A program made the translations under genes and the position numbers. The notes beneath the pieces are model-generated. The model did not search any database, was not told where the DNA came from, and worked only from the letters and a program-made list of their open reading frames with translations. From assembly GCA_026415295.1 (NCBI GenBank), contig JAOAHJ010000028.1:2964-66963 (forward strand): DNA of 64,000 nucleotides, in the 5' to 3' direction. Numbering within the stretch: the stretch's first letter is position 1; each line of letters begins with the position of its first letter. This document shows, in pieces, positions 4,241 to 63,856 of the stretch. The stretch is from Spirochaetota bacterium. Lineage in GTDB: Bacteria; Spirochaetota; JAAYUW01; JAOAHJ01.

Positions 4241-4867
4241 ATGAATATCATAGTTTTAGTTTCAGGAAATGGCACAAACCTTCAAGCTATAATTGATGCT
4301 ATAAATAGTGGTTATTTAATAAATACTTACATAAAAGCTGTTATATCAGATAGAGAAGCCTATGCTTTAGAAAGAGCTAAAAAGTTTAACATCCCTAATC
4401 TACTAATAGACAGAAAAATATATAAACAAAATCTTTCAAATAAAATTTTACAAAGTGTAAAAGAGCTTGAAAGTAAATTCAATTTCAAAACAGACCTTAT
4501 AGTTTTAGCAGGTTTTTTATCAATATTAAACTCTGAATTTATAAACAGTTATAAAAATAGAATTATTAATATTCACCCTGCTCTTTTACCTTCATTTGGT
4601 GGGAAAGGAATGTATGGTAAAAAAGTTTTTGAAGAAGTATTAAATTCAGGTGTGAAATTTACTGGAGTAACTATACATATTGTTGATGAAGGAACAGACA
4701 CAGGTCCAATTATTGCTCAAGAAGTAATAAAAATAGATGAAAATGAAAGTTTGGAAAGTTTAGAAGAAAAAACTCACAAAATAGAACACAAAATTTTAAT
4801 TGATGTACTAAAAAATTTTTCTGAAAAAAAACTAATAATTGAAAATAAAAAAACAAGATGGAATTAA
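4241..4867 (+). CDS. purN: Phosphoribosylglycinamide formyltransferase
   Basis: VLVSGNGTNLQAI N-terminus, formyltransferase fold, 208 aa. Confidence 0.8.
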   Translation: MNIIVLVSGNGTNLQAIIDAINSGYLINTYIKAVISDREAYALERAKKFNIPNLLIDRKIYKQNLSNKILQSVKELESKFNFKTDLIVLAGFLSILNSEFINSYKNRIINIHPALLPSFGGKGMYGKKVFEEVLNSGVKFTGVTIHIVDEGTDTGPIIAQEVIKIDENESLESLEEKTHKIEHKILIDVLKNFSEKKLIIENKKTRWN

Positions 4868-5935: not shown

Positions 5936-7659
5936 CTAGAAAGTTTTTCAACATCATTTTTATTTCTTATACCCAATTGTGAAACTGAATTCATTGCTTC
6001 ATCTATTTCTTTTATCCCTAAAAAAATAGATTCCATATTTTGATTTGTTCCTAAAATCAATTTTTTAAAATCATCCATTAAACTTTTTATATTTTTAGAT
6101 AAGTTTTCTATTTTCTCTGAATTCATATCAACTTTTTCTGATAAATTAACAGCTCCTTCAAGTAATTTAGAAACCTTAATACCTTCATTATATTCATTTT
6201 GGATAACTTCATTATTTTTTATTTCATATGAAGTTAATTGATCAATGTGTTTAGAAATTTCTAGAAAACACTTTTCAAGTAAATTTGAAGAATCAAAAAG
6301 TTGATTAATAGTTGAAACTATATTATTAAGCATCTCTTCTGTTTTCTTTGCTTGTTCTTCAGTTGACTCAGATAATTTTCTTATTTCTTCAGAAACAACG
6401 GCAAAACCTTGTCCTGCTTCTCCAGCATGTGCTGCTTCTATTGCTGCATTAATTGCAAGCAAATTTGTTTGATTAGCAATGCCTAGAATAGTTTCAGTAG
6501 TTTTTTTAAGAGTATCTGAATTACTAAATACACTATCGATAAAGCCTTTTACTTCAATTAAACTATCTTTACCTATTTTTATTGAGTTTATAAGTTTTTG
6601 GAATAGTTCATCTTTTTCTTTAGCATTTTTAAAAACATTTTCTTGATAATCTCTCATCTTTTTAAATACATCAGAAGAGTTATTAATATTATTTAGTAAA
6701 ATATTAGTTGCCTTTCTCTGTTCATCAATATTTTGATCTATTTCAATAACTGAATTAAAAACAGTTTCAATCTTATTATTTATTGTGTTTATCTGCTCTT
6801 TTATATTCATAACATGGCTATTTATATTATGTAACGATGAAGCAGTTTCAGTAACATTACTTGCAAGGTCGAGTGAACTATTGTTTAAACTGTTAATTGA
6901 ATTTTTAATTACTAAAACTGTATCTCTTAAGTTTTTTATAAATTTATTTAAGTAGAATGCCATCTCCCCAATTTCATTTTTTTGTTTAACATCCATTGAA
7001 GCAGTTAAATCTGCTTCACCTTCTGAAATATCTTTCATAATCAAAATTGCTTTTTTAAGAGAATTAATAACTATGATATTTAATGACACATTAAATATAA
7101 AATTAAAAATAATAAAAAGAAAAATTGAAACTAAAATTATTATTTTAATTTCATTAGCTATTATTTTATTAATATAATTTATAGATACTTTTACATAAAG
7201 ATAACCAGCTATATTATTATCAACAACCACCGGAGAAATTATTTCATATCCATTTTTTAATTCTAATTTTTCTATTTTCTCAACTTTCTTTATCTTTTGT
7301 TCAAATTCCTCTGGTGTAACTTTTTTTTCTTGTTTTGATGAAAAAATAATTGTTCCATATTTATCATACAAAGTAATCTCCACATATGAAGGATTATCCT
7401 GTAATGCATTTTTAAGTATCCTTTCTATGTCTCCTATTATATAATATCTTAAAGGATTAACACAAGATTCAATTATATTTTTAACACTTAATATATTTTT
7501 TTCATAATCTATTTTTGATAAATTTTTCGAAATTTCTTTAATACTGATATAAGATAAAAACAGGACTACTATAACAAAAATGATTAAAAACAAAAGTAAG
7601 ATTTTAAAAGTTATTTTGTCAAATAAATTATATTTAAATTTTCCGGTGGTTGTTTTCAT
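5911..7659 (-). CDS. Methyl-accepting chemotaxis protein
   Basis: Two TM segments flanking a ~130-aa periplasmic region, HAMP, and the highly conserved MCP signalling hairpin ([22 protein letters not shown]). 3' end overlaps the convergent 5015..5935 CDS by 25 nt. Confidence 0.85.
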
Positions 7660-16900: not shown

Positions 16901-19495
16901 ATGGAAGACCAAATAAGAAATAATCTTTTTGAATCAAAATATATTGTAAAAGGGATAACATGTTCATCATGCATTAATATCATTACCAAAGTTCTAAAAA
17001 ACAATATAGATGGTATTAATGAAGTTGATATAAATCCACTTTCAAATGAATTAAGAATAAAGTCAAACAAAACTATAAATTTTATTACAATAAAAAACCT
17101 ACTAAATAATTTAGGATATGATCTTTACGAAAATAATAGCTCAATTCTTTCTGATGGTAATTCATTTGATAAAAATAATCTAGCTCAATATAATAAAAAA
17201 AATGAAGTAAAAAATATAAAATCATTTTTAAATGAAAAAAATAATCTTTTAATCTCTATTATTTTTTCAATTCCTCTATTTATTAAAATGTTCTTTATGA
17301 GCAACCATTTTAATTTAAATTTAATAAATCATTATATAGGTGTTCATAAAATTCTATTTCTCAATTTTGATATTTTTATTGATATTATCTTTTCATTTAT
17401 AGTTATTTTTATTTCAGGTTATACAACATTAAGAAAAGCTTTTTTTTCTTTTAAAAATTTTATTTTTACAATGGACACATTAATAGCTATAAGTGCTATC
17501 TCATCTTTCTTAACAGTTCTTATAAGTCCCTTTGTGAGAATAAGTAATTTCTCAATGATTGGTGCTATGATTATTCTAATTAATAATATAGGAAATTTTA
17601 TAAAAAATAGATCAATAAAAAAAACTAATAGATTACTTGAAGAAATTTCAAAACTCTCTGTAAAAGAAGCTCATTTATTATTAGAAGAAAAAAATCATGA
17701 GTTAATTAAAGATCAATCTATTAATAAGTTAAATATTTATAACAATAGTCTTTTAAATAATATAAACTATAATACAATTGATGTTCCACTAGAAAGACTA
17801 AGACCTGGTGATATTGTACTTGTAAAACCAGGTGAAAAAATACCCTCTGATGGTACAATTATTTATGGAGAATCTTTAATTGATCTATCAATAATTTCAG
17901 GTGAATCTGAACCTGTACTCAAAAAAGAAGGAGATTTTATTGTTGGAGGCGCTATAAATAAGTCTAGTTATTTAAAAATTAAAATTAATAAAATTGGAGA
18001 GGAAACCTATATAGAGAACATTAAAAAGTTAATAGAGAATGCCCAACTTAAAAAAGTCAAAATACAACTTTTTGCTGATAAGATTACAAGCTTCTTTGTT
18101 CCTATAATTTTTATACTTTCTATTTTTTCTTTTTTTATTAATTATTTCTTTTACGATAAATTAGCAACAATTTTTTTAAACTTATCTTCAAAAATTAATT
18201 TATTAAAATTTTTAGAAAATACTTTTTTAGTTGAAATTTTTTTAAAATATCCAAAAATAGGTTTTTTCGAAAAATTTTCATTGGGCCTTTATTCTCTAAT
18301 CTCTACTTTAGTTATAGCTTGTCCATGTGCTTTGGGCCTTGCTACTCCAACAGCTATTATGACTGGCTTAGGAGTTGCATATAAAAACAAAATATTAATA
18401 AAGAATGGTGACTTTTTTGAAAAAATAAATAAAATTGATACTATAATATTTGATAAAACTGGAACTATAATATCTGAAATTCCTTCCATAGAAAAGCATA
18501 TATTTTTGAAAAACAAGAAAATAGATAGATCAAAATTATTTTATAGAGAAGAAAAAATAGTTAATAATTTACTTTTAAATGAGGACTTTGTATTAAAAAT
18601 CTCAAAAGAAATTGAAAATTTATCAAATCATCCTATTTCTAAATCAATTACAAGTTATATTAATAATCTTTTTAAAATAAAAAATATAAATAAAAAATTT
18701 TTAAAATTTAAAATAAAAATAGATAAATTTGAATATTTTACTGGAAAAGGAATTAAATCATACATTAGCATTATTAAAGAAGATGATAAAACAAAAGAAA
18801 ATAAAATTATTGCTGAAAATATATTAATTTTATCCGGAAATTATAATTTTATTAAAGAAAATGGAATTATAATAAATTTTGAAAAGGAAAGTTTTAACAA
18901 AAACTCTAATTTTTTTACTATTGATGGTAATATTTTTTTAATATATTTAATAAATGAAAATATAAATGAGCATAACTTAAAATCTGTTAAAATTATAAAT
19001 AAAAAAAATTATGATATATATTTACTTTCTGGTGATAAAAAAGAAAGAACGGAAGAATTAGCAAATAAATTAAAAATAAATAATTATTTTTATGAACTAC
19101 TGCCTGAAGATAAACTTAAAATAATCAATGAACTACAAAAAAAGGGTAAAAAAATTATGATGGTAGGAGATGGAATAAATGATGCTCCTGCATTAAAAGC
19201 TTCAGATATTGGTGTAGCTATAGGTACTGGAACAGATCTTGCTCTTGAAAGTGGAGATATAATATTACTTTCAGGAAAAATTTTTGATTTGTACAAAGCA
19301 ATAATAATAGGAAGAAAAACATTTAATAAAATAAAAATAAATTTATTCTGGGCTTTCTTTTATAATATTATTATGATTCCTTTAGCAATTCTTGGAATTT
19401 TAAATCCAATTTTAGCAGAAATTGCAATGGCATTAAGTTCTATATCTGTGGTAATTAATTCATTATTACTAAAAAGAATAAAAGTTGAATTTTAA
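16901..19495 (+). CDS. copA: Heavy-metal (Cu+-type, P1B) translocating P-type ATPase
   Basis: N-terminal HMA domain (GITCSSC), TM CPC motif (ACPCALGLATP), DKTGT phosphorylation site, GDGINDAP hinge; several long N/K-rich insertions. Confidence 0.75.
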   Translation: MEDQIRNNLFESKYIVKGITCSSCINIITKVLKNNIDGINEVDINPLSNELRIKSNKTINFITIKNLLNNLGYDLYENNSSILSDGNSFDKNNLAQYNKKNEVKNIKSFLNEKNNLLISIIFSIPLFIKMFFMSNHFNLNLINHYIGVHKILFLNFDIFIDIIFSFIVIFISGYTTLRKAFFSFKNFIFTMDTLIAISAISSFLTVLISPFVRISNFSMIGAMIILINNIGNFIKNRSIKKTNRLLEEISKLSVKEAHLLLEEKNHELIKDQSINKLNIYNNSLLNNINYNTIDVPLERLRPGDIVLVKPGEKIPSDGTIIYGESLIDLSIISGESEPVLKKEGDFIVGGAINKSSYLKIKINKIGEETYIENIKKLIENAQLKKVKIQLFADKITSFFVPIIFILSIFSFFINYFFYDKLATIFLNLSSKINLLKFLENTFLVEIFLKYPKIGFFEKFSLGLYSLISTLVIACPCALGLATPTAIMTGLGVAYKNKILIKNGDFFEKINKIDTIIFDKTGTIISEIPSIEKHIFLKNKKIDRSKLFYREEKIVNNLLLNEDFVLKISKEIENLSNHPISKSITSYINNLFKIKNINKKFLKFKIKIDKFEYFTGKGIKSYISIIKEDDKTKENKIIAENILILSGNYNFIKENGIIINFEKESFNKNSNFFTIDGNIFLIYLINENINEHNLKSVKIINKKNYDIYLLSGDKKERTEELANKLKINNYFYELLPEDKLKIINELQKKGKKIMMVGDGINDAPALKASDIGVAIGTGTDLALESGDIILLSGKIFDLYKAIIIGRKTFNKIKINLFWAFFYNIIMIPLAILGILNPILAEIAMALSSISVVINSLLLKRIKVEF

Positions 19496-19737
19496 ATTAT
19501 TTAATTAAAAAATTTTTAAAAAAATAATATCCAATCTGTAATTTTAATAAAATTATTTTCTTTACAATATCAATCTATATTATTGATTAATTTATTATTC
19601 AAACAATGTTTATAATATTTATAAATAATTAATAATATAATATTCAATTAAATAAGTTGAAATTTATAATATATATATTATATATTTAAATGTTATATAT
19701 TTTAATAATAACTAATTACAATTAAGAGGTAAAATTT

Positions 19738-20385
19738 ATGAGAAAAAATAAACTAATTAAAAAGTTTTCTAATCTTTTTTTAATTTTATTAATAATTTTA
19801 ATTTTTTTCTCGTTAAATTGCTTTGCAAAATTCAATATTGGATTTACTTCAAATTTTATCATTCCACCTCCATTTACAAATATAAGTCCTTCTTTTATTA
19901 ATTCTTTACTTGTTGATGGTGGCTTTAAATTATGTTATATAATGAATGATTTTTATATTTTAGGTTTTTATTTAGATTTATCAACAGGAATTATTTCAAT
20001 TCTTAAAACATTTGAAACAATAGGTTGGATTGTTTTTTTTCCAATTTCAATTGGTCTAAAAATTCCATTTCCCGAGATACCTCCAACTATAGGTATTATT
20101 AATCTTGGCATTGTAACTGGTATAAATATTGTAAACAAACCTAACTTCAAACTTGATTTTATATCCAAATTTGGCTTTGGATCTATTGAAATTCAAGCAG
20201 AAAAAAATATTCAGGCATCTTTCTACTCAATTAAACCTGAATTAAATTTAAAATATCCTTTAGCAAAATTTTTTGGATTCGGTTTATCAAATTCAAATGC
20301 TTTTCTTTTTTTAAAAGAACCAGTAAACAATAAAAAAATTATTTATTATTCATCTTTAGGTTTATATATTTATTTTGAATTTTAA
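19738..20385 (+). CDS. Small secreted protein, possible outer-membrane beta-barrel
   Basis: Signal peptide; Gly/aromatic-rich alternating pattern; C-terminus ...LGLYIYFEF ends in Phe (OMP beta-signal-like). Confidence 0.3.
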   Translation: MRKNKLIKKFSNLFLILLIILIFFSLNCFAKFNIGFTSNFIIPPPFTNISPSFINSLLVDGGFKLCYIMNDFYILGFYLDLSTGIISILKTFETIGWIVFFPISIGLKIPFPEIPPTIGIINLGIVTGINIVNKPNFKLDFISKFGFGSIEIQAEKNIQASFYSIKPELNLKYPLAKFFGFGLSNSNAFLFLKEPVNNKKIIYYSSLGLYIYFEF

Positions 20386-20679
20386 ATATTTATTTTATTT
20401 TACAATTTCTATTTTCAATATTAATTTTTTAGTTATTTATTATTAGTTTAACTTTAAAATTATATTTTTATTTTATAATTTCTTATATTTTAATTTTTTA
20501 TTTGGTTTAGTTTTATACTTTTTTCAATACACTGCTTTTATTATTTCAATTTTATAAATATAATATTATTTTATATTTTATTTTTTCTAATCTATATATA
20601 GAGTTTAAATAAATTTTTTCTTGACAATTTTTTTATTTTTTATATTTATTTTTATAGAAAGAGGGATAGAAAGGATTAT

Positions 20680-20752
20680 GGGCGATTAGCTCAGCTGGGA
20701 GAGCATCTGCCTTACAAGCAGAGGGTCGTAGGTTCAAGCCCTGCATCGCCCA
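20680..20752 (+). tRNA. tRNA-Val (anticodon TAC)
   Basis: Cloverleaf folded by hand: acceptor GGGCGAT/ATCGCCC, D-stem GCTC/GAGC, anticodon stem TCTGC/GCAGA with loop CTTACAA, T-loop TTCAAGC; CCA not encoded. Confidence 0.85.
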
Positions 20753-20756
20753 ATCT

Positions 20757-20832
20757 GCGGGAATAGCTCAGTTGGTAGAGCGCGACCTTGCCAAGGTCGA
20801 TGTCGCGGGTTCGAGCCCCGTTTCCCGCTCCA
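20757..20832 (+). tRNA. tRNA-Gly (anticodon GCC)
   Basis: Acceptor GCGGGAA/TTCCCGC, anticodon stem CGACC/GGTCG with loop TTGCCAA, T-loop TTCGAGC, discriminator U, CCA encoded. 4 nt after tRNA-Val. Confidence 0.85.
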
Positions 20833-20929
20833 TAAATCCCTCTTTTTTATTTTTAAAATATATTTAACTTTAATAAAAATGTTTAATATTTTTATAAACT
20901 TAATAATTATAAAATCTTTTTTAAAAAAA

Positions 20930-20963
20930 ATATAGCTACCTTAATTAAAAAAGGTAGCTATAT
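20930..20963. terminator. Perfect 13-bp inverted repeat ATATAGCTACCTT-(8 nt)-AAGGTAGCTATAT, likely bidirectional terminator between tRNA pair (+) and rubrerythrin (-)
   Basis: Seen directly; flanked by A-run upstream and T-rich sequence downstream. Confidence 0.45.
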
Positions 20964-21127
20964 ATTTAATCCAAATAAAATAAAGCTATATAATATTTAT
21001 ATATATTAACATTATTATATATTTCATATAATTAAAAATTAAGCTGTTTTAAAAACTTCTCTGTATTAGATTATTAATAATTATTTTTCTTATACTTCAT
21101 TAATATCTAATATTTACTCTAAAAATT

Positions 21128-21706
21128 TTACCAGTTTTCACATAAAATTTCAAAGAAGCTTTGAGGATGAGCACAAGCTGGGCAACTTTGTGGTGCTTCT
21201 TCTCCTTCATAAATAAAACCACAATTATTACATTTCCACCAAACTTTTTTATCCTTTTTAAAGACACTTCTATTTTCTATATTTTTAAGTAAAGCTCTAT
21301 ATCTTTTTTCATGTTGCTTCTCAACAATTGCAATGTTCCTAAAAACTTGAGCAATCTCTGGAAAACCTTCCTTTTCAGCTTCATCAGCAAAATTTTGATA
21401 CATAGTTGTCCATTCATAGTTCTCTCCATTAGCAGCAGCTAATAAATTTTCAGGAGTTGTTCCAATTTTCCCTGCTGGATAAGCTGCATTAATTTCAACT
21501 TCACCTCCCTCTAAAAACTTAAAAAATCTCTTAGCATGTTCTTTTTCATTTAAAGCTGTTTCTTCAAAAATCATTGCAATTTGAATATATCCCTCTTTTC
21601 TTGCAACTGATGCAAAATAATCATATCTATTCCTTGCTTGTGATTCACCTGCAAAAGCAGCCAATAAATTTTTTTCAGTTTTTGTTCCTTTAACAGATTT
21701 AGCCAT
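21128..21706 (-). CDS. rbr: Rubrerythrin
   Basis: Diiron ferritin-like N-domain (ExxH motifs) plus C-terminal rubredoxin-like CNNCG...CPACAHP domain, 192 aa. Confidence 0.85.
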
Positions 21707-21886
21707 AAAACCTCCTTTTTTAAAAATATTAAGTTAAAAGTAAGTTTTATATTATATTATATAATAAATATACTTAATTTTTTTATAACATTTCATAAAA
21801 ATAGTTAGAAATTTATTTAACATAAAAATATTTATAGTAAAAAATTATATAAACAATTTCAAAACAATTTTTTTATAAAAATAAAA

Positions 21887-22141
21887 TTACAAATTAATTT
21901 CAATCAATTTTGCTTTAACACCTTCAAGTAAATTTAATTTTCTTTCAAGCTCTAAATGTTTTTCTTTTTCTCCAACAAGCTCAAGGAAAATAGTCCCATT
22001 ATCGGAACATTTATCTAGAACCTCATCATGTATACCAAGTCTAATCTTTATTAAACAACCCCAACCTGTTAAAATTTCCTGAACTTTAATAGCATTATTT
22101 TTCCTTTTATCAATAATTATAATCATAAATCTTTTTTCCAT
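21887..22141 (-). CDS. TM1266-family small ACT-like protein (annotated elsewhere as putative iron-only hydrogenase system regulator)
   Basis: 84 aa; MEKRFMIIIIDKR...VQEILTGWGCLIKIRLGI...IFLELVG...KLNLLEGVKAKLIEI closely follows my recollection of the TM1266 family pattern. No hydrogenase genes nearby. Confidence 0.45.
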   Translation of the reverse strand: MEKRFMIIIIDKRKNNAIKVQEILTGWGCLIKIRLGIHDEVLDKCSDNGTIFLELVGEKEKHLELERKLNLLEGVKAKLIEINL

Positions 22142-22201
22142 AATATTTCCTGCTTTATGATTTATTTAACTTAAAAGTCTATTAAAAAAATAAACGAAAA
22201 T

Positions 22202-22582
22202 TTAAACTTTCCACAACCCATGTAAATTACAGAATTCTCTAACATATAATATATCTGATCTATTAACATTAAAAATAGCTTCAGGTTTATCTCCAGGGTT
22301 TAATTCTTTTCTTAAAATATAACCATCTTTTGTAACAACTTCAATAAATTGGATCCAGTGAGAATCTTCCATTGGATGAGGAACAGAGCCAACTTTAACT
22401 AATATTTTATTGCTAGTATCCTCAATTACAGGTAAGTGTTTTTCTCCAGCACCTTCTCTATTTTTCTCATCCATTAAAGTCATCTCTTGCCCACAACAAA
22501 CCAAATCTCCTTCACCTTCAATAAAAACTTCAACTACATTACCACAAATTTTGCATTTATAAATTCCCATTTTAGTTGCCAT
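22202..22582 (-). CDS. dfx: Desulfoferrodoxin (2Fe superoxide reductase)
   Basis: N-terminal desulforedoxin CKICGN...CCG plus centre-II His/Cys ligands (HLPVIE, HPMEDSHW, CNLHG); 126 aa. Confidence 0.85.
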   Translation of the reverse strand: MATKMGIYKCKICGNVVEVFIEGEGDLVCCGQEMTLMDEKNREGAGEKHLPVIEDTSNKILVKVGSVPHPMEDSHWIQFIEVVTKDGYILRKELNPGDKPEAIFNVNRSDILYVREFCNLHGLWKV

Positions 22583-22725
22583 AAACCCTCCTTAATTTAA
22601 TTCTAGATTATTTAAATTTTTTAAAATTTTAAATATTAAATAATTTCATTTATAATATTACAAATTAAAATAAAATATTGAATTAAGTTAAATATTATCT
22701 AAGTAACTATTAATGTTCTTAAATT

Positions 22726-23247
22726 TTAATCTATATAACCTTTATCAAAAATATTCTGTGGATATTCTCTTTTACCCATTTCTTTATCAAGATAAAGTAA
22801 ACCACTATTTGAATTAGAAATCATTTTTAACTTTTGCAAAATAGTATCCACTGACAATTCTTCTTCAACCTGTTCTTTAACATACCACTTTAAGAAATCC
22901 AAAGTAGCGTAATCTTTTTCATCTTCTGAAATTTTTACTAATTCCCATATTCTTGAAGTTATATATTTTTCATGTTTTAAAGCTTTTTCAAAAGCATCTA
23001 AAATTGATTCAAATTTCGTTTCAGGTTTTTTAATTTCTAAAAGTTCAGGTTTTTTCCCTCTTTCGACAAGATAATTAAAAAACTTCATTGCATGCATAAT
23101 CTCTTCTTGAACTTGAGCTTTCATCCAATGTGCAAACCCTTGTAAATTTATAGATTCAAAATAAGATACAATAGAAAGGTAAAGATATGCTGAATAAAAC
23201 TCCTCATTTACCTGTCTATTTAACTCATTAAAAATTCTATCAGTCAT
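22726..23247 (-). CDS. ftn: Non-haem ferritin
   Basis: Ferritin-like diiron ligands (EEFYSAYLYL, QEEIMHA), 173 aa. Confidence 0.75.
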   Translation of the reverse strand: MTDRIFNELNRQVNEEFYSAYLYLSIVSYFESINLQGFAHWMKAQVQEEIMHAMKFFNYLVERGKKPELLEIKKPETKFESILDAFEKALKHEKYITSRIWELVKISEDEKDYATLDFLKWYVKEQVEEELSVDTILQKLKMISNSNSGLLYLDKEMGKREYPQNIFDKGYID

Positions 23248-23386
23248 AATTTTCTCCTTAATTACTTTTTAAATTAAACTATAAAAAATATCTATAAATT
23301 TTATAATAATTTTAACATTTCTTTTTCTATTAATTTTTTATTTTACTAATTGTTATACAATTATAAAATTCAATAATATAAAAAAT

Positions 23387-24547
23387 TTAAAGTTTATTAC
23401 TAATATCATCTTTAATTTTATTAAGATCTTCATCTGAAGGAACATATTGTATTTTATATGATCCTATAATATTAAGACCCATTTCATTAATAATTTTTTC
23501 AATATCTTTTATACTTTCACCACCCCAACCATAAGAACCAAAAACAAATATTTTTCTATTTTTAGGATTTAACCCTTTAAAATATGTTATAAATGCTGAT
23601 ACTGTAGGCAACATGTTTTTATTTAAAGTTGGGGAACCTATAAAAATATATTCAGAATCCAATATTTCAGTAATAACATCAGAGATATGATTTTCTTGTA
23701 ATGGCATATATTTAAAAGATATTTTTTTATCATCTAATACACTTTTAATTGCATCCGCTATCATTTTTGTTGAATTCCACATTGTATCATAAACTATAAC
23801 AGCCTTTCTTTCAGTTAAGTTTTTGCTCCACTTATCATAATTCGAAATAAATTCTTTAATAAACTTTTTAATTATTAACCCATGACTCGGACAGATAATT
23901 TCAATTTCTAACTTTTGAGCTTCAGAAAGCTCCTTTTGAACTTGATCACCATATGGTAAAACTATATTGGCATAATATTTTTTTGCCTCATAAAAAAGAA
24001 TATCTCTATCATATTCTTCATCAAATCTCTCAAAAGAAGCAATGTGCTGACCAAAGCCATCATTAGAAAATAAGATTTTTTCTTCTTGGCAATATGTAAC
24101 CATATTATCTGGCCAATGAACCATTGGGGTTAATAGAAAAACTAGATTTCTTTTCCCAATATTTAATTTATCTCCACTTTTAACCTCTATATAATTAAAT
24201 TCTTTTTTATAATGAGCTTTCAGTCCTTTTAAACCATTAGGAGAAGTATAAATTTTTAAATTAGGATTTAATTCTAATATTTTAGGTAGTGAACCTGAAT
24301 GATCCATTTCAACATGATTAGAGATATAGTAATCAATTTTTGAAATAGGAACGATTTTTTCAATTCTTTCTTTGAATTCATCAAATAAATAATGCTTAAC
24401 ATTATCAATTAAAACAATCTTTTCATCTAATATTAAATAAGAATTATAACTTGAACCTCTTTGAGTCAAATAACCATGAAAATTTCTTAAATTCCAATCA
24501 ACAGCACCAACCCAATAAATATCATCTTTAATTTTAATAGCATCCAT
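23387..24547 (-). CDS. fprA: Flavodiiron protein (rubredoxin:oxygen/NO oxidoreductase, FprA/ROO type)
   Basis: Metallo-beta-lactamase-like diiron motif HVEMDHSG followed by flavodoxin-like domain; 386 aa. Confidence 0.8.
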   Translation of the reverse strand: MDAIKIKDDIYWVGAVDWNLRNFHGYLTQRGSSYNSYLILDEKIVLIDNVKHYLFDEFKERIEKIVPISKIDYYISNHVEMDHSGSLPKILELNPNLKIYTSPNGLKGLKAHYKKEFNYIEVKSGDKLNIGKRNLVFLLTPMVHWPDNMVTYCQEEKILFSNDGFGQHIASFERFDEEYDRDILFYEAKKYYANIVLPYGDQVQKELSEAQKLEIEIICPSHGLIIKKFIKEFISNYDKWSKNLTERKAVIVYDTMWNSTKMIADAIKSVLDDKKISFKYMPLQENHISDVITEILDSEYIFIGSPTLNKNMLPTVSAFITYFKGLNPKNRKIFVFGSYGWGGESIKDIEKIINEMGLNIIGSYKIQYVPSDEDLNKIKDDISNKL

Positions 24548-24709
24548 AAAATCTCCGTAATTTTAATTTTTTTAAATATAAAATATATAAAAGAATAATA
24601 ATTTTTATACAATATTAAATTAAATACAAATTTGTAATTTTTACAAAATAAATTTAAAAAAAATTAATTAAATTTTAATTAAACCCCACCCACCACCCTT
24701 CAAAAAAAA

Positions 24710-24847
24710 TTACTCCTTCTCAAATGCATCTTTTTCGGCACCACAAACTGGACAAACCCAATCATCAGGCAACTTTTCAAAAGGAATACTATCATTTTCT
24801 GAAGGATCATAAATATAACCACACACTGTACAAACCCATCTTTCCAT
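24710..24847 (-). CDS. rd: Rubredoxin (45 aa) - not in supplied ORF track
   Basis: Manual translation of minus strand: [45 protein letters not shown]; two CxxCG knuckles and conserved W/Y/F/P positions of rubredoxins. Confidence 0.8.
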
Positions 24848-24956
24848 CTAATCACCTCATATATTTTTTATTTATAAATATCACTATTAATATAATAATT
24901 AAATTGAAAATTTTTTCAATAACTTTTTTTATGAAAAATTACTAAACATTAAAATC

Positions 24957-25373
24957 TTAATTTATACAATTTTTACAAACCCCTTCAAAAATAACTATAT
25001 TACTAATTACCTTATTACCATCTATAAAATCTATTTTAAATTTATCAACAACTAACTTATCTTCAATATCATATAATTTATCACATTTTATACATTTAAA
25101 ATGTAAATGGGGAATATAATTTAAATCATATACTGTTTTATCTCCATTAATAAATGAAATAGCTAAACCTTTTTCTATAAATATTTTCAAGGTATTATAA
25201 ATCGTAGTTTTTGATAAAGTCGGGATCTGTTTTTCAAGTTCATTAAAAATTTCTTCAATTGTAGGATGATTTCTTTTTAAAATAAAATATTTTAATATAG
25301 CTAATCTTTGTACTGAAGGTTTAATTTCGTATTTCTGCAATAAACTATACTCAAAAATTGCCTGTGTATCCAT
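24957..25373 (-). CDS. perR: Fur-family transcriptional regulator, probably peroxide-responsive (PerR-like)
   Basis: Winged-helix N-domain, HLHFKCIKC and C-terminal CKNC metal sites; located at head of oxidative-stress cluster. Confidence 0.65.
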   Translation of the reverse strand: MDTQAIFEYSLLQKYEIKPSVQRLAILKYFILKRNHPTIEEIFNELEKQIPTLSKTTIYNTLKIFIEKGLAISFINGDKTVYDLNYIPHLHFKCIKCDKLYDIEDKLVVDKFKIDFIDGNKVISNIVIFEGVCKNCIN

Positions 25374-25753
25374 ATGCTTCCCTTTTTTAGTTGTATTAAA
25401 AAACCTATCTATAATTTCAAAAAATCAATACAAATTAAAAATTATCTAATTTATTTTAATAATATCTTTGATTTTAATATTTTTATTTTTAAATATATTA
25501 ATTATTTTCATTTAATAAATTAATTTACATAATATCTTAATATTATAATTAAAATATAATATAGTTTTTTTAAAATTCAAAATTTTATTTTTTTTAATTG
25601 TAAAAAATTTGAAAATTTATTATTTTTTTTTATATTTTTTAAAGATTAATAATTAAATTACTAAATAAATTAAAATAAAAATTCTATTACTTTTATATTA
25701 AGTTAATTATAGTTTGTAGATGGAAAATTTAATAATTAAATATTAATTTGGTT

Positions 25754-26602
25754 ATGATAATTGAAATTTTTTTAAAAATAAAAAATCCTCTTTATCAAGC
25801 TTTATTTGGTGGGTTTTTAACATGGTTTTTAACTCTTTTTGGAGCTATTTTTATTTTTTTTAATAAAAAACCTTCTAAAACAATATTTAGTTCAATGCTT
25901 TCACTTGCTGGCGGCATTATGCTTGCAGCTAGTTTCTGGTCACTTCTTTTGCCGGCAAAAAATATAGCGGAAGATCTAGGGATAAACCCATTTTTAAATA
26001 TTACTTTAGGTCTTTTATCTGGTTCTTTATTTATTTTTTTACTCGATAGGTTAATCCCTCATAAACATATTCAAGAAAATCAAATTAAAATATCTCAAGA
26101 AAATTCAGATACTGAAATAGAAGGAATAAAAACAAATTTAAAAAAAACTTATTTATTTATTCTTGCTGTTGTTTTACATAATATTCCAGAAGGTTTAGCA
26201 GTAGGTGTTGCATTTGGTGCATTGATAAACAATATTAATGATATAAATATTTTGGTAAGTGCTATAACATTAACTATAGGTATTGGGTTACAAAATATAC
26301 CTGAAGGTTTAGCTATTGCCCTTCCTCTTTATGCTAATGGATTTTCAAAAAGAAAAAGTTTTTTTTATGGACAACTTTCTGCAATAGTGGAACCTGTTTC
26401 AGCTCTATGTGGTGTAATTTTTGTTTCAATTTTTAAAAATATTCTACCCTTTTCTATGTCATTCGCATCTGGAGCTATGATTTATATAATAATAGAAGAA
26501 GTAATTCCAGAATTTCAAAAAAATAAAACCAATGATATTGCTACACTTTTTTTCATTGCAGGCTTTATAATAATGACTATTTTAGATATAAGTCTTGGAT
26601 AA
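25754..26602 (+). CDS. zupT: ZIP-family zinc/iron transporter
   Basis: HNIPEGLAVG and QNIPEGLAIAL signature helices. ORF track start at 25748 is TTG; first ATG is 25754. Confidence 0.7.
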   Translation: MIIEIFLKIKNPLYQALFGGFLTWFLTLFGAIFIFFNKKPSKTIFSSMLSLAGGIMLAASFWSLLLPAKNIAEDLGINPFLNITLGLLSGSLFIFLLDRLIPHKHIQENQIKISQENSDTEIEGIKTNLKKTYLFILAVVLHNIPEGLAVGVAFGALINNINDINILVSAITLTIGIGLQNIPEGLAIALPLYANGFSKRKSFFYGQLSAIVEPVSALCGVIFVSIFKNILPFSMSFASGAMIYIIIEEVIPEFQKNKTNDIATLFFIAGFIIMTILDISLG

Positions 26603-26621
26603 AATAAAATAGGGGGATAAT

Positions 26622-27788
26622 ATGAAAAAAAATCTTTCTAATTTTAAAAATAATCATTCTATTAAAATAATTGGTATTAAAACAATTAAAAAAAGTTTAA
26701 TATTTTTAACATTAACATTAAGTTTATTGCTAGTTTCAATATTATATTCATGTTCAAATACTATTACTAACACTTCATCAAAAAATGAATCCTATGATAC
26801 AAAGGCTTCAAATTATGAACCAGATCCAGGAAATAAACCAATAGGTTTAATAGTATATTCTACTGGAAACAAAAAATTTATAAAAAGAAATCCAATTGGT
26901 GGATTTTTAATTCAAGGTGGAGGTCTTGATGTTGATGAAGCATTTTTATGGCTTATAAACAGATGTGATGGAGGAGATTTTGTTGTTTTAAGAACTAATG
27001 ATTCAAAAGGCTATAATGATTGGATATATTATGATCTTAAAGGAGTAAATTCAGTTCATACTTTAGTTGTTAATTCTTATACCTTTGCAAATTCATCTTA
27101 TGTAGAAAATGTAATTAATAATGCTGAAGCTATTTTTATTGCTGGTGGTGATCAATATGAATATTATAAATACTGGAAAGGTACAAAACTTGAATCTGCT
27201 ATAAAAAGAGCTTATTTTGAAAGAAAAGTTCCTATTGGTGGAACTTCTGCTGGAATGGTTGTGCTTGGACACTTTGACTATATTCCGTACAATAATGGAG
27301 TAACTTCTGACGAAGCTCTCCAAAATCCATACCATAAAAATATGGATTATATTAAAAATGATTTTCTTGAAAACTTTGAAATATTTAAAAATATTATTTT
27401 CGATACCCATTTTTATGAAAGAAAAAGAATGGGAAGATTAATAACTTTTATGGCAAGAATAGTAACAGATTATAAAATCAATTACAATGAAATAAAAGCA
27501 GTAGCATGTGATGAAAAAACTGCAATATGTATTGATAATAATGGCATTGGAAAAGTTTTTGGTTATGGTTATGCTTTCTTCTTAATTGGAAATAGACCAA
27601 TAGAAAGATGTAGGAGTGAAAGCCCTCTTGATTGGTATGGGAATAAACAAGCTGTAAAATGTATTAGAGTTAAAGGAACTTTATCTGGTAGTAATACTTT
27701 TGATTTTAAAAATTGGTCATCAAATTATGGCGAAACTTATTATATATGGGTTGATAATGGAACTTTATATCCTGATCGAGTATATTAA
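26622..27788 (+). CDS. Secreted lipoprotein of peptidase S51 (cyanophycinase/dipeptidase E-like) family
   Basis: Signal peptide plus lipobox (LYSCS); GGTSAGMVVLG serine nucleophile elbow typical of S51; strong GGGG RBS. Confidence 0.45.
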   Translation: MKKNLSNFKNNHSIKIIGIKTIKKSLIFLTLTLSLLLVSILYSCSNTITNTSSKNESYDTKASNYEPDPGNKPIGLIVYSTGNKKFIKRNPIGGFLIQGGGLDVDEAFLWLINRCDGGDFVVLRTNDSKGYNDWIYYDLKGVNSVHTLVVNSYTFANSSYVENVINNAEAIFIAGGDQYEYYKYWKGTKLESAIKRAYFERKVPIGGTSAGMVVLGHFDYIPYNNGVTSDEALQNPYHKNMDYIKNDFLENFEIFKNIIFDTHFYERKRMGRLITFMARIVTDYKINYNEIKAVACDEKTAICIDNNGIGKVFGYGYAFFLIGNRPIERCRSESPLDWYGNKQAVKCIRVKGTLSGSNTFDFKNWSSNYGETYYIWVDNGTLYPDRVY

Positions 27789-27839
27789 AAAATTAAATAT
27801 AAAATTTATTAATTAAATTCAAAAAGGAACTGAGATAAA

Positions 27840-28730
27840 ATGGGTCTATTTACTAAAATACTAAATCTATTAAAATCAAATGCTAATTTTTCTGAAATAA
27901 AAAACAATCTATTACTTGCTGATATTGATTTAGATACAATTAATTATATAGAAAAAGAACTAAAAAATAAAAAAGAGTTGAAAGATATTCTTAAGTCTTT
28001 AATTATACCATGGAGTTTTATCCCTGATAAAAATAAGAAAAATATATTTTTAATTATTGGTGTTAATGGTTCTGGTAAAACAACTCTTATTTCTAAAATT
28101 TCAAAATATTACAAAGATAAAGGTTATAATATTTTAGTTTCAGGGGCAGATACATTTAGAGCTGCTGCTATTGACCAATTAAAACATTGGTGTGAGAAAA
28201 ATAAAATTGATTTTATAAGTAATATTCAGGGTGCTGATCCTGCTTCTGTAATATTTGATTCTATGACAAAATTTTTAAATTCTAATTATAACATTTTAAT
28301 AATAGATACAGCGGGTAGATTACAGAATAAAGAGGAATTAAATCAGCAATTAAAAAAAATAGATAAGGTTATAAGAAAAAAGATAGATGAATACAATAAA
28401 GAAAAATATAACCTTCCAGATAACAAAAATAGTATTGATAAAAAGACAGATTCTAATACAATAGAAAGTATTAACTATAAAAAAATTCTAGTTATAGATG
28501 CAAACATAGGGAAAAACTCAATACAGCAAGCTGAAATTTTTAATAATATTATTGGAATAGACTCTTTTTCTATAACAAAGCTTGATTCAACAGCTAAAGG
28601 TGGCTCAATTTATAATATATGTAAAAAATTAAATTTATCTCTTTCATATGTTTCTTTTGGTGAAAAAATAGAAAATATTATTACTCCTGAAAACCCTGAT
28701 TTTATAGAATTTTTAATAAATAAAATTTAA
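27840..28730 (+). CDS. ftsY: Signal recognition particle receptor FtsY (NG domain only)
   Basis: GVNGSGKTT P-loop, DTAGR, TKLDSTAKGG; only 296 aa, no acidic A-domain; Asn/Lys-rich insertion between G3 and G4. Confidence 0.75.
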   Translation: MGLFTKILNLLKSNANFSEIKNNLLLADIDLDTINYIEKELKNKKELKDILKSLIIPWSFIPDKNKKNIFLIIGVNGSGKTTLISKISKYYKDKGYNILVSGADTFRAAAIDQLKHWCEKNKIDFISNIQGADPASVIFDSMTKFLNSNYNILIIDTAGRLQNKEELNQQLKKIDKVIRKKIDEYNKEKYNLPDNKNSIDKKTDSNTIESINYKKILVIDANIGKNSIQQAEIFNNIIGIDSFSITKLDSTAKGGSIYNICKKLNLSLSYVSFGEKIENIITPENPDFIEFLINKI

Positions 28731-42189: not shown

Positions 42190-43320
42190 TTATTTATTTA
42201 ACTTATTTTTTTCAATCACATTAATTAATCCTAAAACAATATTATAATTTACAAAATTTTTATCAATCTGCTTTAAAAAATAATAACTATTTTTAAAATC
42301 TGGTGGGTTTTTATAAAAATAAGAGTACCCAAGAATATAAAAAAAATAATTTTTAAACCTACTATTTGAAATAACATTTAAATAATCCTTACTAAATTCA
42401 ACTATTTTTTGAAACTCGTTTTTAATAAAATAAACTCTTAATATTATAATTAAAAATTTATCAAGATCTTCTTCATCAAAATTATTATTATAGATAAAAT
42501 TTAATGCTTCCTCAAAGTTTGATAGAGATACAAATTCATTTTGAGCTAAAATATGAATCTTTGCAAGCATATATGATGAATAAAAAAATATTTTCCCTTC
42601 AAAATATTGAATATTCTGTAATTTAATAGATTGTTCATAACTTATATTTTTTTCAATCTTTTTAAAATCCTTTTCTAGCTTTTTATAAGAATAAATCTTA
42701 TCTTTAAAATTATTAAAATAATCTTTTAGCAAAGTAAAATAAGAGGAACTTAAGGAGAAGTTCCCAGTCAAATAATAATAAATACCAAGATAAAATAAAT
42801 AAGAAATATTTAAATTTTCAATATCTAAAGAGGTGTTTAAATTATTTATTTCTGAATCTTTTAGAGATAAAAATATATTATTATTAAAAAAATAAAAAAT
42901 TCTATTTGTAAAATAGTTTTTAAAATATTGCGAATTTTCAGAAATAGGACCTAGATTCACTTCTTTATTTATATTTATAGAATCCAAAAGTTTAAAATTT
43001 AGACTATATTTTATAACAATATTTAAATCCCTTACATTGAATATTATATTTGAATTGCCATATTTCTTTATTTTAATTACAAATATAGTAGAATCATATG
43101 AATCAATAACCTTTTTTATTTCAAAATAATTTGAATCCAAAACATCAACAGTTGCATTTAAATAATTAATAAAGATAAAAAACTCTTCATTTTCATTTTT
43201 ATAAAATTCAACATTTATATCATAATTTATAAAATTAGATTTATTTTGGGCAAGAAGATTAAAAGGCAAAAATATAAATAATACTTCTAGAACAATAATT
43301 ATAAATGTTTTGTAATTCAT
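42190..43320 (-). CDS. Hypothetical secreted protein, N/Y/F-rich (possible TPR-like C-terminal half)
   Basis: Signal peptide ...LLAQ; no catalytic motifs. Confidence 0.35.
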   Translation of the reverse strand: MNYKTFIIIVLEVLFIFLPFNLLAQNKSNFINYDINVEFYKNENEEFFIFINYLNATVDVLDSNYFEIKKVIDSYDSTIFVIKIKKYGNSNIIFNVRDLNIVIKYSLNFKLLDSININKEVNLGPISENSQYFKNYFTNRIFYFFNNNIFLSLKDSEINNLNTSLDIENLNISYLFYLGIYYYLTGNFSLSSSYFTLLKDYFNNFKDKIYSYKKLEKDFKKIEKNISYEQSIKLQNIQYFEGKIFFYSSYMLAKIHILAQNEFVSLSNFEEALNFIYNNNFDEEDLDKFLIIILRVYFIKNEFQKIVEFSKDYLNVISNSRFKNYFFYILGYSYFYKNPPDFKNSYYFLKQIDKNFVNYNIVLGLINVIEKNKLNK

Positions 43321-62227: not shown

Positions 62228-63856
62228 TCAAAAATAAAATAAAAGTGCAAAAAAAAGATCATAATTCGCTATGAAATGATCAGTCCTACTTTCTGCTTCA
62301 TAAAATTGAACATAATTTTCAAATACTTTATCTTTAATAAAAGAAAAAGATATGTTAGAAAAAATGTTATTGTTTAATTTATATGTTATACCAATTGATA
62401 TTTTGTATTTTGGTTGATAAATAATCAAATCATCTGCAAATATATTTGAATCATAAAATGAAAAAATAATAAAAAATTTTGCACAGGAATTAAAAACAGA
62501 AGAAAAATATATAAAGAATCCAGCTCCAGGAAATGGAGTACCCATATTATTATAATTTGGAAGATCATCTGGTAATAAAAAACCATCATTATAGTTATAA
62601 AGATAAAGATTCCAAAAAGATTTATAAGATGGATTACTTTGATCCGAAATAAAATTATTATAAGTTGGGTCATATGGATTAATTTTATCCTTTGTAAATC
62701 CATGTAAAGTCAAATAAGTTTCAAATGCAAAATTAAAACTAAATTTTTTTGAAATATACAAATATTCTAGATAAAAAGAAAATTGATCATTTCTAACTTT
62801 AGCAGGAACTGAGCCCCTTTCACCTAAAGAAGTTGCAATTGATAAATAGAAGCCAGATAATTTTAAATTTTCCTCTGTTATAAAATCTAAAAATTTCTTA
62901 TAACTATAATTTTTTATATATCTTCCAATTAATTCAATAAAAGTTTCATTTTTGAAAAAAAAATTTAGATAAAAATAATGGAGTAATTTATATGTTTCAT
63001 CTAGATTAAACAAAATAGAATTTAGCAAACGATTTTTTGAAGAAGAATTATCTCTAATGTCTAGATTTTCAAAAATACCACTTCTAATAATTATTTTAGA
63101 GAAAAACTGTTTTGAAGAATTTGAATCAAGTCCTTCTTCACCATTTGAAGTTCCTAAATATAAACTAAAAGAAAAATCTCTTTCAATATTATAATTAATT
63201 TTTATTAATAAAAAAATATCAAATAAATGAGCGGAATTTGAATAATACAAAGGTAAAATTCTATCACCTAAAAAAAAAGCAAAGTAAGGATGTGCATTAC
63301 TAAAATTAAAATAAGGAAGATTATAGTTAGGTAAAGGATATGCAGGTGTTCTATATATGACAGGAGGATTGTAATTTTCAAAATGGTAATTTAATATAAG
63401 ATTTTGAAGATAGCATGCAATAAAATAAAAATTTCTATTTACTTCAGTTTCAAAATAAATTTCCCTAATTCTTATTAAATCAGGATTAAATTGATTAAAA
63501 AATCTTGATTTATTTGATGACAAAATATTAAAATCAAAATTTATTTCAAAAAAAGAAAGTAGGTTAATTCTATCATTAAAATTTAATTTTTGCGAATATA
63601 ATAATAAAGGGGAAAATACAATATTAAAAGTATCTTCATTTCCAGTAATCTCAACCATCTCACATGTCCTATAAAAAGAAACAATACTAAAAAGAAAAAG
63701 AAAGTTTTGATAATTATTTGACAAAAAGTTTGTATAACTTAATTTAGAGAAATAATTAATATAAAATTCATTTGAAAAAATATCAATTGTGGTTGATATA
63801 AGTGTAAAAATTATAATTAAAAGGATAAAAAAAAATTTATTTTTACCTTTTATCAA
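62228..63856 (-). CDS. Secreted Y/F/N-rich protein, probable outer-membrane beta-barrel
   Basis: TTG start with signal peptide, extreme aromatic content, C-terminus ...LFFALLFYF (terminal Phe beta-signal). Confidence 0.35.
   Translation of the reverse strand: MIKGKNKFFFILLIIIFTLISTTIDIFSNEFYINYFSKLSYTNFLSNNYQNFLFLFSIVSFYRTCEMVEITGNEDTFNIVFSPLLLYSQKLNFNDRINLLSFFEINFDFNILSSNKSRFFNQFNPDLIRIREIYFETEVNRNFYFIACYLQNLILNYHFENYNPPVIYRTPAYPLPNYNLPYFNFSNAHPYFAFFLGDRILPLYYSNSAHLFDIFLLIKINYNIERDFSFSLYLGTSNGEEGLDSNSSKQFFSKIIIRSGIFENLDIRDNSSSKNRLLNSILFNLDETYKLLHYFYLNFFFKNETFIELIGRYIKNYSYKKFLDFITEENLKLSGFYLSIATSLGERGSVPAKVRNDQFSFYLEYLYISKKFSFNFAFETYLTLHGFTKDKINPYDPTYNNFISDQSNPSYKSFWNLYLYNYNDGFLLPDDLPNYNNMGTPFPGAGFFIYFSSVFNSCAKFFIIFSFYDSNIFADDLIIYQPKYKISIGITYKLNNNIFSNISFSFIKDKVFENYVQFYEAESRTDHFIANYDLFFALLFYF

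Follow-up and report, generated by a model that had tools for sequence, protein, structure and literature searches.

Seven adjacent genes on the minus strand of a 64,000-nucleotide (nt) stretch of Spirochaetota contig JAOAHJ010000028.1 (the whole stretch is referred to hereafter as the window) were characterized. They encode a PerR-like regulator, a short rubredoxin, a flavodiiron protein, a ferritin, a superoxide reductase (SOR), an 84-amino-acid (aa) protein of the CPF_0552 family and a rubrerythrin. The analysis supports their identification as a chromosomal, locally regulated and functionally coherent oxidative-stress cluster from an anaerobic spirochaete whose DNA is very rich in AT. One predicted operator for the regulator was found, in the spacer between rd and fprA, and the block is probably a local PerR-type regulon in which this operator precedes a five-gene transcript, fprA-ftn-dfx-act-rbr. 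The genes and the associated sites are as follows.

24957..25373, minus strand: perR-like Fur-family repressor gene, 138 aa (PF01475, 69.1 bits against a cut-off of 23.1)
24892..24919, minus strand: promoter-like site before rd, TTGAAA-16-TATTAT (10 of 12 positions)
24710..24847, minus strand: rd, short-form rubredoxin, 45 aa (Pfam Rubredoxin, 53 bits against a cut-off of 23)
24632..24646, no strand assigned: predicted PerR operator TTGTAAAAATTACAA, a 7-1-7 inverted repeat 84 nt before the fprA start codon
23387..24547, minus strand: fprA, class-A flavodiiron protein, 386 aa, O2 or NO reductase (ODP and Flavodoxin_1 domains)
22726..23247, minus strand: ftn, non-haem ferritin, 173 aa (Pfam Ferritin, 146 bits)
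22202..22582, minus strand: dfx, two-iron superoxide reductase, 126 aa (TIGR00320, 174.3 against a cut-off of 146.9)
21887..22141, minus strand: act, CPF_0552-family protein, 84 aa (NF052672, 99.3 against a cut-off of 85)
21128..21706, minus strand: rbr, rubrerythrin, 192 aa (NF045767, 312 bits against a cut-off of 200)
20930..20963, minus strand: intrinsic terminator after rbr, 13-bp stem and T run

All seven open reading frames (ORFs) were recovered in a listing of positions 19000-28000, which contained no further gene-like ORF of at least 40 aa between them. Domain identities were assigned by Pfam and NCBIfam scans and the closest solved structures by sequence searches of the PDB. Coordinates and domains thus agree with an earlier sequence-only reading of this DNA, which had described seven back-to-back genes with no unrelated gene between them, and the domain identities and regulator alignments bear out its view of a functionally coherent oxidative-stress cluster beside a PerR-like regulator. 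The same reading gave the spacing as 100-180 nt. From the rbr side to the perR side the gaps are 180, 60, 143, 139, 162 and 109 nt, so that the range holds for five of them and fails for the gap between dfx and act, which is only 60 nt.

A single predicted operator in the rd-fprA spacer

The recognition helix of the regulator, PTLSKTTIYNTL, is invariant or nearly so in the 27 clade members aligned, and the operator was therefore sought across the clade. At 86 loci the sequence preceding the regulator gene (250 nt at most) was searched, and exact gapped palindromes were counted without a prior motif. TGTAAT-N-ATTACA was present in 33 of the 86 regions and TGTAA-N3-TTACA in 45. In 50 sets of shuffled sequences, the commonest palindrome with 6-nt half-sites reached at most three regions in any set. 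The clade operator consensus is TTGTAATnATTACAA, a 7-1-7 inverted repeat, and a site within three mismatches of it is found at 70 of 84 loci, mostly 20-60 nt before the start codon. Both the 84-locus set and the matrix derived from it (68 sites upstream of related regulators) exclude the window and its closest relative found, a Logan contig with proteins 74-96% identical (L008).

The best match to this matrix in the whole window is the 7-1-7 repeat at 24632-24646, in the rd-fprA spacer, with a score of 14.0 bits. About 0.17 matches at this score are expected per 64 kb in first-order Markov simulations, and the probability of one in the 1167 nt of island spacers is ∼0.002. In the matrix scan the other six spacers had no site above 5 bits, and no PerR box was present in the 374-nt spacer between perR and the divergently oriented ZIP-family transporter gene. 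The orthologous operator is kept in L008 at 4726-4740. It lies within a 24-nt block, TTGWAAAAATTACAAATTTGWA, that differs from L008 at two positions and is the best-conserved part of the rd-fprA spacer. From this site we infer that the regulator binds here.

One box per island is also the pattern elsewhere. Most other islands scanned have a single box, usually before perR as the first gene. Four spirochaete metagenome contigs (L009-L012), whose regulators are 48-49% identical to that of the window, have exactly one box each, downstream of perR and before nror-fprA-dfx-prx-rbr.

Several other candidate sites were considered and rejected. The second-best match in the window, TTGTAACAACTTCAA at 22330-22344 (12.0 bits), is inside the dfx coding sequence and is not conserved in L008. 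A motif noticed by eye, TACAAATT, occurs four times in the island spacers and once elsewhere; it failed an unbiased k-mer permutation test. Two palindromes seen by eye, TTGAAAAAATTTTCAA before rd and AATTGTATAACAATT before ftn, lack a conserved counterpart in L008 and are treated as chance in DNA of ∼11% GC.

The regulator belongs to a divergent PerR-like clade

The regulator has the winged-helix and dimerisation domain of the Fur family (PF01475). Its best matches in the PDB are the PerR proteins of Campylobacter jejuni (6dk4), Bacillus subtilis (2fe3) and Streptococcus pyogenes (4i7h); Leptospira PerR (5nl9) is also among its best solved relatives, and all of these rank ahead of Fur proteins. 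H36, D83, H89, H91 and D102 align with the regulatory-site residues H37, D85, H91, H93 and D104 of B. subtilis PerR. The four cysteines of the structural zinc site are likewise present, C94, C97, C133 and C136 aligning with C96, C99, C136 and C139. The zinc-site cysteines are invariant among the 27 aligned regulators, as are H36, H89, H91 and D102, and the position of D83 is occupied by Asp or Glu. We take the sequence to point to a PerR-like member of a divergent clade, rather than to a proven peroxide sensor.

An alternative is that the regulator is an iron-sensing Fur, and that the block is an iron-sparing or iron-storage regulon responding to iron supply, with a ZIP metal importer next to it. 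Each product in the block is indeed an iron protein or an iron store, the ZIP gene is divergent from the regulator gene in both the window and L008, and the operator has the 7-1-7 shape general to the Fur family, to which the regulator belongs without reaching any PerR equivalog cut-off. Against this, PerR models outrank Fur, Zur and Irr models in the NCBIfam scan (85.7 as against 35 bits for Fur), and the PerR structures 6dk4, 2fe3 and 4i7h come first in the PDB search. The position equivalent to D104 of B. subtilis PerR is Glu in Fur; here it is Asp, and invariantly so in the clade. Across phyla the clade adjoins genes for rubrerythrin, SOR, flavodiiron protein, rubredoxin and peroxiredoxin, not iron-uptake genes. 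A ZIP gene is near the regulator in only three other loci, and the spacer that it shares with perR in the window lacks a box. An iron-responsive Fur regulon is accordingly unlikely, and a PerR-type regulator is preferred.

The clade is present, with its operator TTGTAATnATTACAA conserved, in Bacteroidota (Bacteroides), Cloacimonadota, Fusobacteriota, Spirochaetota and other bacterial phyla. It also occurs on contigs of metagenome-assembled genomes (MAGs) labelled as archaeal (Methanobacteriota, Candidatus Alkanophaga, Methanophagales and Halobacteria), which suggests horizontal spread or mis-binning. The sole archaeal-labelled contig scanned with the matrix, from Candidatus Alkanophaga (L027), gave no match that reached the threshold of 11.5 bits.

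Predicted transcript architecture

In the arrangement that we favour, the Fur-family protein would be a PerR-type metal-dependent repressor recognising the 7-1-7 repeat TTGTAATnATTACAA. It would repress transcription at its one site in the rd-fprA spacer, and peroxide or O2 would trigger its release. The regulated transcript would start before fprA, continue through ftn, dfx and act into rbr, and end at the strong terminator after rbr. The perR and rd genes are upstream of the operator and would be expressed from promoters of their own, which lack a recognisable box.

One regulated transcript is favoured because there is a single box, because no intergenic terminator intervenes until rbr and because two of the spacers are short in L008, where the fprA-ftn and ftn-dfx gaps are 37 and 77 nt as compared with 139 and 143 nt in the window. 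The terminator after rbr is the sole intergenic terminator-like site between 20300 and 25800, and none was found between perR and rbr. An analogous hairpin and T run follow rbr in L008. Upstream of the operator, TTGAAA-16-TATTAT before rd is the best-scoring promoter-like match in the region; L008 has TTGAAA-16-TATCAT at this point and so keeps both hexamers, and the site presumably serves as the rd promoter. Folding of the rd-fprA spacer as RNA gave z-scores of -1.4 and +1.2, with no significant structure.

The sequence-only reading had instead suggested individually tunable promoters under one regulator, which would require seven promoters, all tuned by the Fur/PerR-like protein through a shared Per box. 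The layout of the genes gives this some substance: the gaps at five of the six junctions are 109-180 nt long, every gene is preceded by a Shine-Dalgarno sequence of its own, spacing tends to be wider in the island than between the window's other same-strand neighbours (median 141 as against 66 nt), and the promoter-like site before rd is conserved in L008. The difference in gap length is not significant, however (p = 0.10). The L008 gaps of 37 and 77 nt argue against a promoter for every gene, as does the spacing in L009-L012, where most genes that follow the box lie about 10-40 nt apart. Promoter-like hexamer pairs are no commoner than in shuffled sequence (43 as against 47.3). A search for a shared Per-box motif, as had been proposed for the seven upstream regions, yielded nothing by k-mer analysis beyond what random sets gave, the best 8-mer shared by the seven spacers being equalled in 107 of 300 random sets of intergenic regions. 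The canonical B. subtilis Per box, TTATAATNATTATAA, is not enriched (23 window matches as against 18.3 expected), and the clade operator occurs in one spacer only, the scores in the others being 5 bits or less. With one credible predicted operator, before fprA, seven separately tuned promoters are improbable, and the five-gene transcript remains the preferred reading.

A number of observations nevertheless weigh against it. The box departs from the consensus at one position, and its L008 counterpart at two. Five of the spacers, at 109-180 nt, are long by the standards of operons in this genome and could contain box-less internal promoters; a conserved TATTATAT precedes rbr. A weak, AT-only hairpin followed by T8 is found after rd, and there may be read-through from perR-rd. 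Every NCBIfam PerR model scored below its curated cut-off (the best, NF052545, at 85.7 against 180), and for this reason the regulator is called no more than PerR-like. As a member of a divergent clade it could respond to hydrogen peroxide, O2 or iron. FprA, for its part, could prefer either O2 or NO.

Detoxification enzymes and electron donor

FprA is closest among solved structures to Moorella FprA (1ycf, E = 6e-101), the core of Escherichia coli NorV and Desulfovibrio gigas ROO (1e5d); both named NO reductases and an O2 reductase are thus among its nearest solved homologues. It matches 1ycf, 1e5d and 2ohh over its full length, has the HxExDH motif and consists of the diiron and flavodoxin domains with no extra domain, as in class A. 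The possibility that it is a flavorubredoxin was ruled out by its score against NorV models (405 as against 635).

Dfx aligns end to end with Desulfovibrio desulfuricans desulfoferrodoxin (1dfx), with both metal centres matched. The CxxC...CC, EKH, HPMExxH and CNLH motifs are kept, and the Cys4 centre I, the His4Cys centre II and the family score all indicate a two-iron SOR. Rbr aligns over its full length with Desulfovibrio vulgaris rubrerythrin (1b71, E = 4e-71) and matches both the Pfam Rubrerythrin and RUBY_RBDX domains. Ftn falls below the NCBIfam cut-off for non-haem ferritin (111.7 against 178).

Rd has the CxxCG and CPxCG knuckles of rubredoxins, with cysteines at positions 6, 9, 32 and 35. 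At 45 residues it is ∼7-9 short of the usual length, the loop between the knuckles being shortened, and because of this it scores below the NCBIfam rubredoxin equivalog cut-off (63.7 against 90). Its L008 orthologue, called there by the gene caller, is 96% identical.

Rubredoxin and three terminal reductases (SOR, rubrerythrin and flavodiiron protein) are therefore all encoded in the block. By analogy with the characterized families, reduced rubredoxin would pass electrons to the two-iron SOR, which would convert superoxide to hydrogen peroxide; to rubrerythrin, which would reduce hydrogen peroxide to water; and to the class-A flavodiiron protein, which would reduce O2 to water, or NO to N2O. 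Ferritin would sequester iron.

The electron supply to rubredoxin is not covered by the window. A search of its whole length (E ≤ 0.05) gave no homologue of the NADH:rubredoxin oxidoreductase (NROR) of L009, and none of peroxiredoxin. The enzyme that reduces rubredoxin may have its gene in another part of the genome. The block had been called unusually complete, donor included; it lacks both of these genes, which the L009-L012 contigs carry.

Conservation of the gene block

In L008 the gene order, perR, rd, fprA, ftn, dfx, rbr, matches that of the window, as do the flanks, with the ZIP gene, an S51 peptidase gene, FtsY and tRNA genes. ZIP is divergent from perR there too, and the same two tRNA genes follow rbr. 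The L009-L012 blocks are larger, with tight spacing between most genes. In L009, L010 and L012 they consist of rd, a short rubrerythrin gene, NifU, another rubrerythrin gene, ferritin and perR, followed by the genes for NROR, FprA, Dfx, peroxiredoxin and Rbr; L011 begins partway through a block of this type.

To place these in context, the seven proteins of the window were used to search 80 species-representative loci with a related regulator. Three loci (two Cloacimonadota and one uncultured bacterium) had six of the gene types, six loci had five and nine had three; in 47, none of the types other than the regulator was present within 10 kb. These counts also tell against the block being unusually complete. 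Blocks with five or six types recur in Cloacimonadota, in Fusobacteriota and on one contig assigned to an archaeal MAG, and in Cloacimonadota PerR, flavodiiron protein, ferritin, SOR, rubrerythrin and rubredoxin are found together.

It could be argued that the genes are neighbours through an accident of gene order in this lineage and are not regulated together. The 47 loci in which none of the other six gene types is near the regulator would fit this, as would the finding in SORGOdb that most sor genes lie beside functionally unrelated genes (PMC3116461). Yet the order and the flanks are conserved in L008, five- and six-type blocks recur in other phyla, and the island holds the window's single best operator match. 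An accident of gene order is very improbable indeed on this evidence. We conclude that the grouping of the genes is not due to chance, since order and flanks recur in L008 and similar blocks recur in other phyla.

The CPF_0552-family protein

The 84-aa protein had been described as a TM1266-like ACT protein. Its fold agrees with this: the AlphaFold model (mean predicted local distance difference test score 83) has a beta-alpha-beta-beta-alpha-beta arrangement, and its best PDB match is TM1266 (2nzc; Foldseek E = 1.8e-4, template-modelling (TM) score 0.69), followed by PII-like proteins and the nickel-binding domain of NikR. Family membership does not agree, the scores being below the TM1266 cut-offs (TIGR03959, 28.3 against 60.8 bits; PF21699, 19.5 against 27). 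The protein is instead a member of the CPF_0552 family (NF052672), which is not mentioned in the literature searched.

It is 57-63% identical to ten homologues from other lineages, and an identical copy is annotated in a 'Spirochaetes bacterium' MAG. W27-G28-C29, R34-L35-G36, H38 and C45 are invariant in the homologues. The conserved Cys/His segment forms a low-confidence loop in the AlphaFold model.

The genomic context of the family is mixed. Two lineages that were looked up directly have unrelated neighbours around the gene, and a census of 80 metagenome loci revealed no universal partner. In eight census loci, in L076 (Melioribacteraceae) and in the window, the gene is on the same strand as rd, sor, ftn, rbr or fprA genes and is flanked by or next to them. 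These ten loci fall into 9 of 31 sequence clusters (at ∼75% identity), range from 23% to 57% GC and differ in gene order. In three loci (L076, L115 and L133) a strong PerR box lies upstream of the gene, on its own strand. In L008 only its last 18 codons are left, at 6993-7049 between dfx and rbr, in frame and with the stop codon (KLNLLNGVKAKLIKINFD). The remnant is that of a fresh deletion; the gene is therefore ancestral to both genomes and dispensable.

We read the protein as an occasional accessory of such operons; it has no established place in the pathway of which it had been taken to be a part. A further and more doubtful possibility is that it belongs to the PerR-controlled oxygen-defence operons of anaerobes as a genuine, so far unrecognised accessory. 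It would then be a small oligomer acting as sensor or carrier, related in fold to the C-terminal domain of NikR and to PII-like domains, and its invariant loop with Cys29, His38 and Cys45 would bind iron or another metal or act as a thiol switch. In favour of this are the 9 of 31 clusters with the gene inside such operons, the spread of these loci in GC content and gene order, and the three loci with a strong PerR box. Three findings speak against it: most family members are in unrelated contexts, the gene is present in only 1 of 24 regulator loci rich in genes against reactive oxygen species (ROS), and the closest relative, L008, has lost it.

A second small gene was seen in the same position in other islands. 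It lies between dfx and rbr in ROS islands from different phyla and encodes a helix-turn-helix (HTH) protein of 55-62 aa that weakly matches HTH_11, Fe_dep_repress and MarR. The examples are as follows.

L099, 2864-3052: small HTH gene
L100, 719-874: small HTH gene
L047, 4601-4756: small HTH gene
L088, 7593-7754: small HTH gene

In L099 and L100 this gene adjoins the CPF_0552-family gene, and two Cloacimonadota islands carry it between dfx and rbr. In some lineages the two adjacent proteins may form a split regulator. The small HTH gene is absent from the window, and no remnant of it was found in the act-rbr spacer of 180 nt. In L011 and L012 the 87-aa ORF that follows rbr was considered as a CPF_0552-family gene and found to be unrelated.

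Other features of the region

The window is ordinary chromosome, with purine synthesis genes and genes for a methyl-accepting chemotaxis protein, TldD/PmbA, pyruvate kinase, Ffh, FtsY, SMC, UvrA and XseA, and its GC content is evenly ∼19-29%. For these reasons the 'island' is a cluster and not a mobile element. In the region, Rfam detected nothing beyond the two tRNAs.

The ZIP-family metal transporter gene (25748-26602, plus strand), whose divergent position is conserved in L008, was considered as a part of the module and set aside on account of its rarity near related regulators and the box-less spacer. A gene for an HMA-domain P-type ATPase (16901-19495, plus strand) is located 1.6 kb beyond rbr. 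Four sizeable ORFs had no Pfam match: 42190-43320 (minus strand, 376 aa), 46547-49045 (minus strand, 832 aa) and 62228-63856 (minus strand, 542 aa) at an E-value threshold of 1e-5, and 19738-20385 (plus strand, 215 aa) at 1e-3.

A G-rich tract, GGGTGGTGGGTGGGG, lies at 24684-24698 (minus strand), just past the rd stop codon and on the sense strand, in spacers of ∼11% GC. In L008 it is conserved at about 4669-4692 as GGGTGGGTGGG followed by GTGAGG. When one mismatch is allowed, its 10-nt core has three matches in the window as against 0.25 expected, the other two being in coding sequence. Neither an Rfam match nor a supported fold nor a conserved small ORF was found for the tract, which could form a G-quadruplex or act as a Shine-Dalgarno-like element.

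Significance and comparison with known systems

The cluster is a tidy but expected case of rubredoxin-dependent oxygen defence in strict anaerobes, and adds to the list a spirochaete lineage that is uncultured, extremely rich in AT and known from a metagenome-assembled genome. The consensus TTGTAATnATTACAA is well supported and can be used to predict regulons in genomes that have the clade. In the spirochaete layout, the regulator gene is upstream of, and outside, the box-controlled operon. The CPF_0552 family, uncharacterized, small and highly conserved, recurs in such operons and offers a lead.

Locally PerR-controlled operons of rbr, sor, rd and roo genes have precedents (PMC545781; PMC8546684; 10.1101/2024.09.17.613384). 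In Clostridioides difficile, PerR binds a promoter fragment of the rbr-perR-sor(rbo)-CD0828 operon, which is derepressed by hydrogen peroxide or air (10.1101/2024.09.17.613384; PMC8546684; PMC11980386). As in that operon, a PerR-family gene here shares a block with rubrerythrin, desulfoferrodoxin and a rubredoxin-type entry point for electrons. The C. difficile system is a four-gene operon whose regulated transcript includes perR, and its rubredoxin domain is fused to a dehydrogenase. Here, ferritin, the flavodiiron protein, a free 45-aa rubredoxin and the CPF_0552-family protein are added, and perR is upstream of the sole recognisable predicted operator.

Desulfovibrio and Geobacter have local PerR regulons of the perR-rbr-rdl, perR-rbr-roo and rbo-rub-roo types, with lineage-specific palindromic boxes, such as AtCAGTAATtGTTACTGgT before D. 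vulgaris perR-rbr-rdl (PMC545781). Shared features are the association of perR with rubrerythrin, rubredoxin-like and roo genes, palindromes that differ from that of Bacillus, and mainly local regulation; the D. vulgaris core, AGTAATnGTTACT, is similar to TGTAATnATTACA. Those regulons belong to a different phylum and have other genes in another order, and in them the box precedes perR.

The nror-fprA2-dsr system of Clostridium acetobutylicum, which is under PerR control, has the electron chain predicted for the window, in which electrons pass from rubredoxin to a flavodiiron protein, to desulfoferrodoxin and to a peroxidase of the rubrerythrin type. NROR is encoded in the operon there, whereas the 64-kb window contains none. 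The operon, with rubredoxin and rubperoxin, is described by Kawasaki et al. (2009) as cited in PMC3116461.

L009-L012 have a similar layout, with a single TGTAATGATTACA box downstream of perR and ahead of the detoxification genes. They share fprA, dfx, rbr and ftn with the window, and rd is present in three of the four contigs. They differ in adding nror, peroxiredoxin, two more rubrerythrin-like genes and NifU, in their tighter spacing and in lacking a CPF_0552-family gene. The 84-aa protein itself has the same fold as the uncharacterized ACT-like TM1266 of Thermotoga maritima (2nzc), with TM scores of about 0.6 to the NikR C-terminal and PII-like domains. It is only ∼20% identical to TM1266, which has no counterpart of the invariant WGC...RLGxH...C loop of the CPF_0552 family.

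In SORGOdb, most sor genes are not clustered with those of their partners (PMC3116461). The block is therefore a fuller-than-average example, yet one of a known kind.

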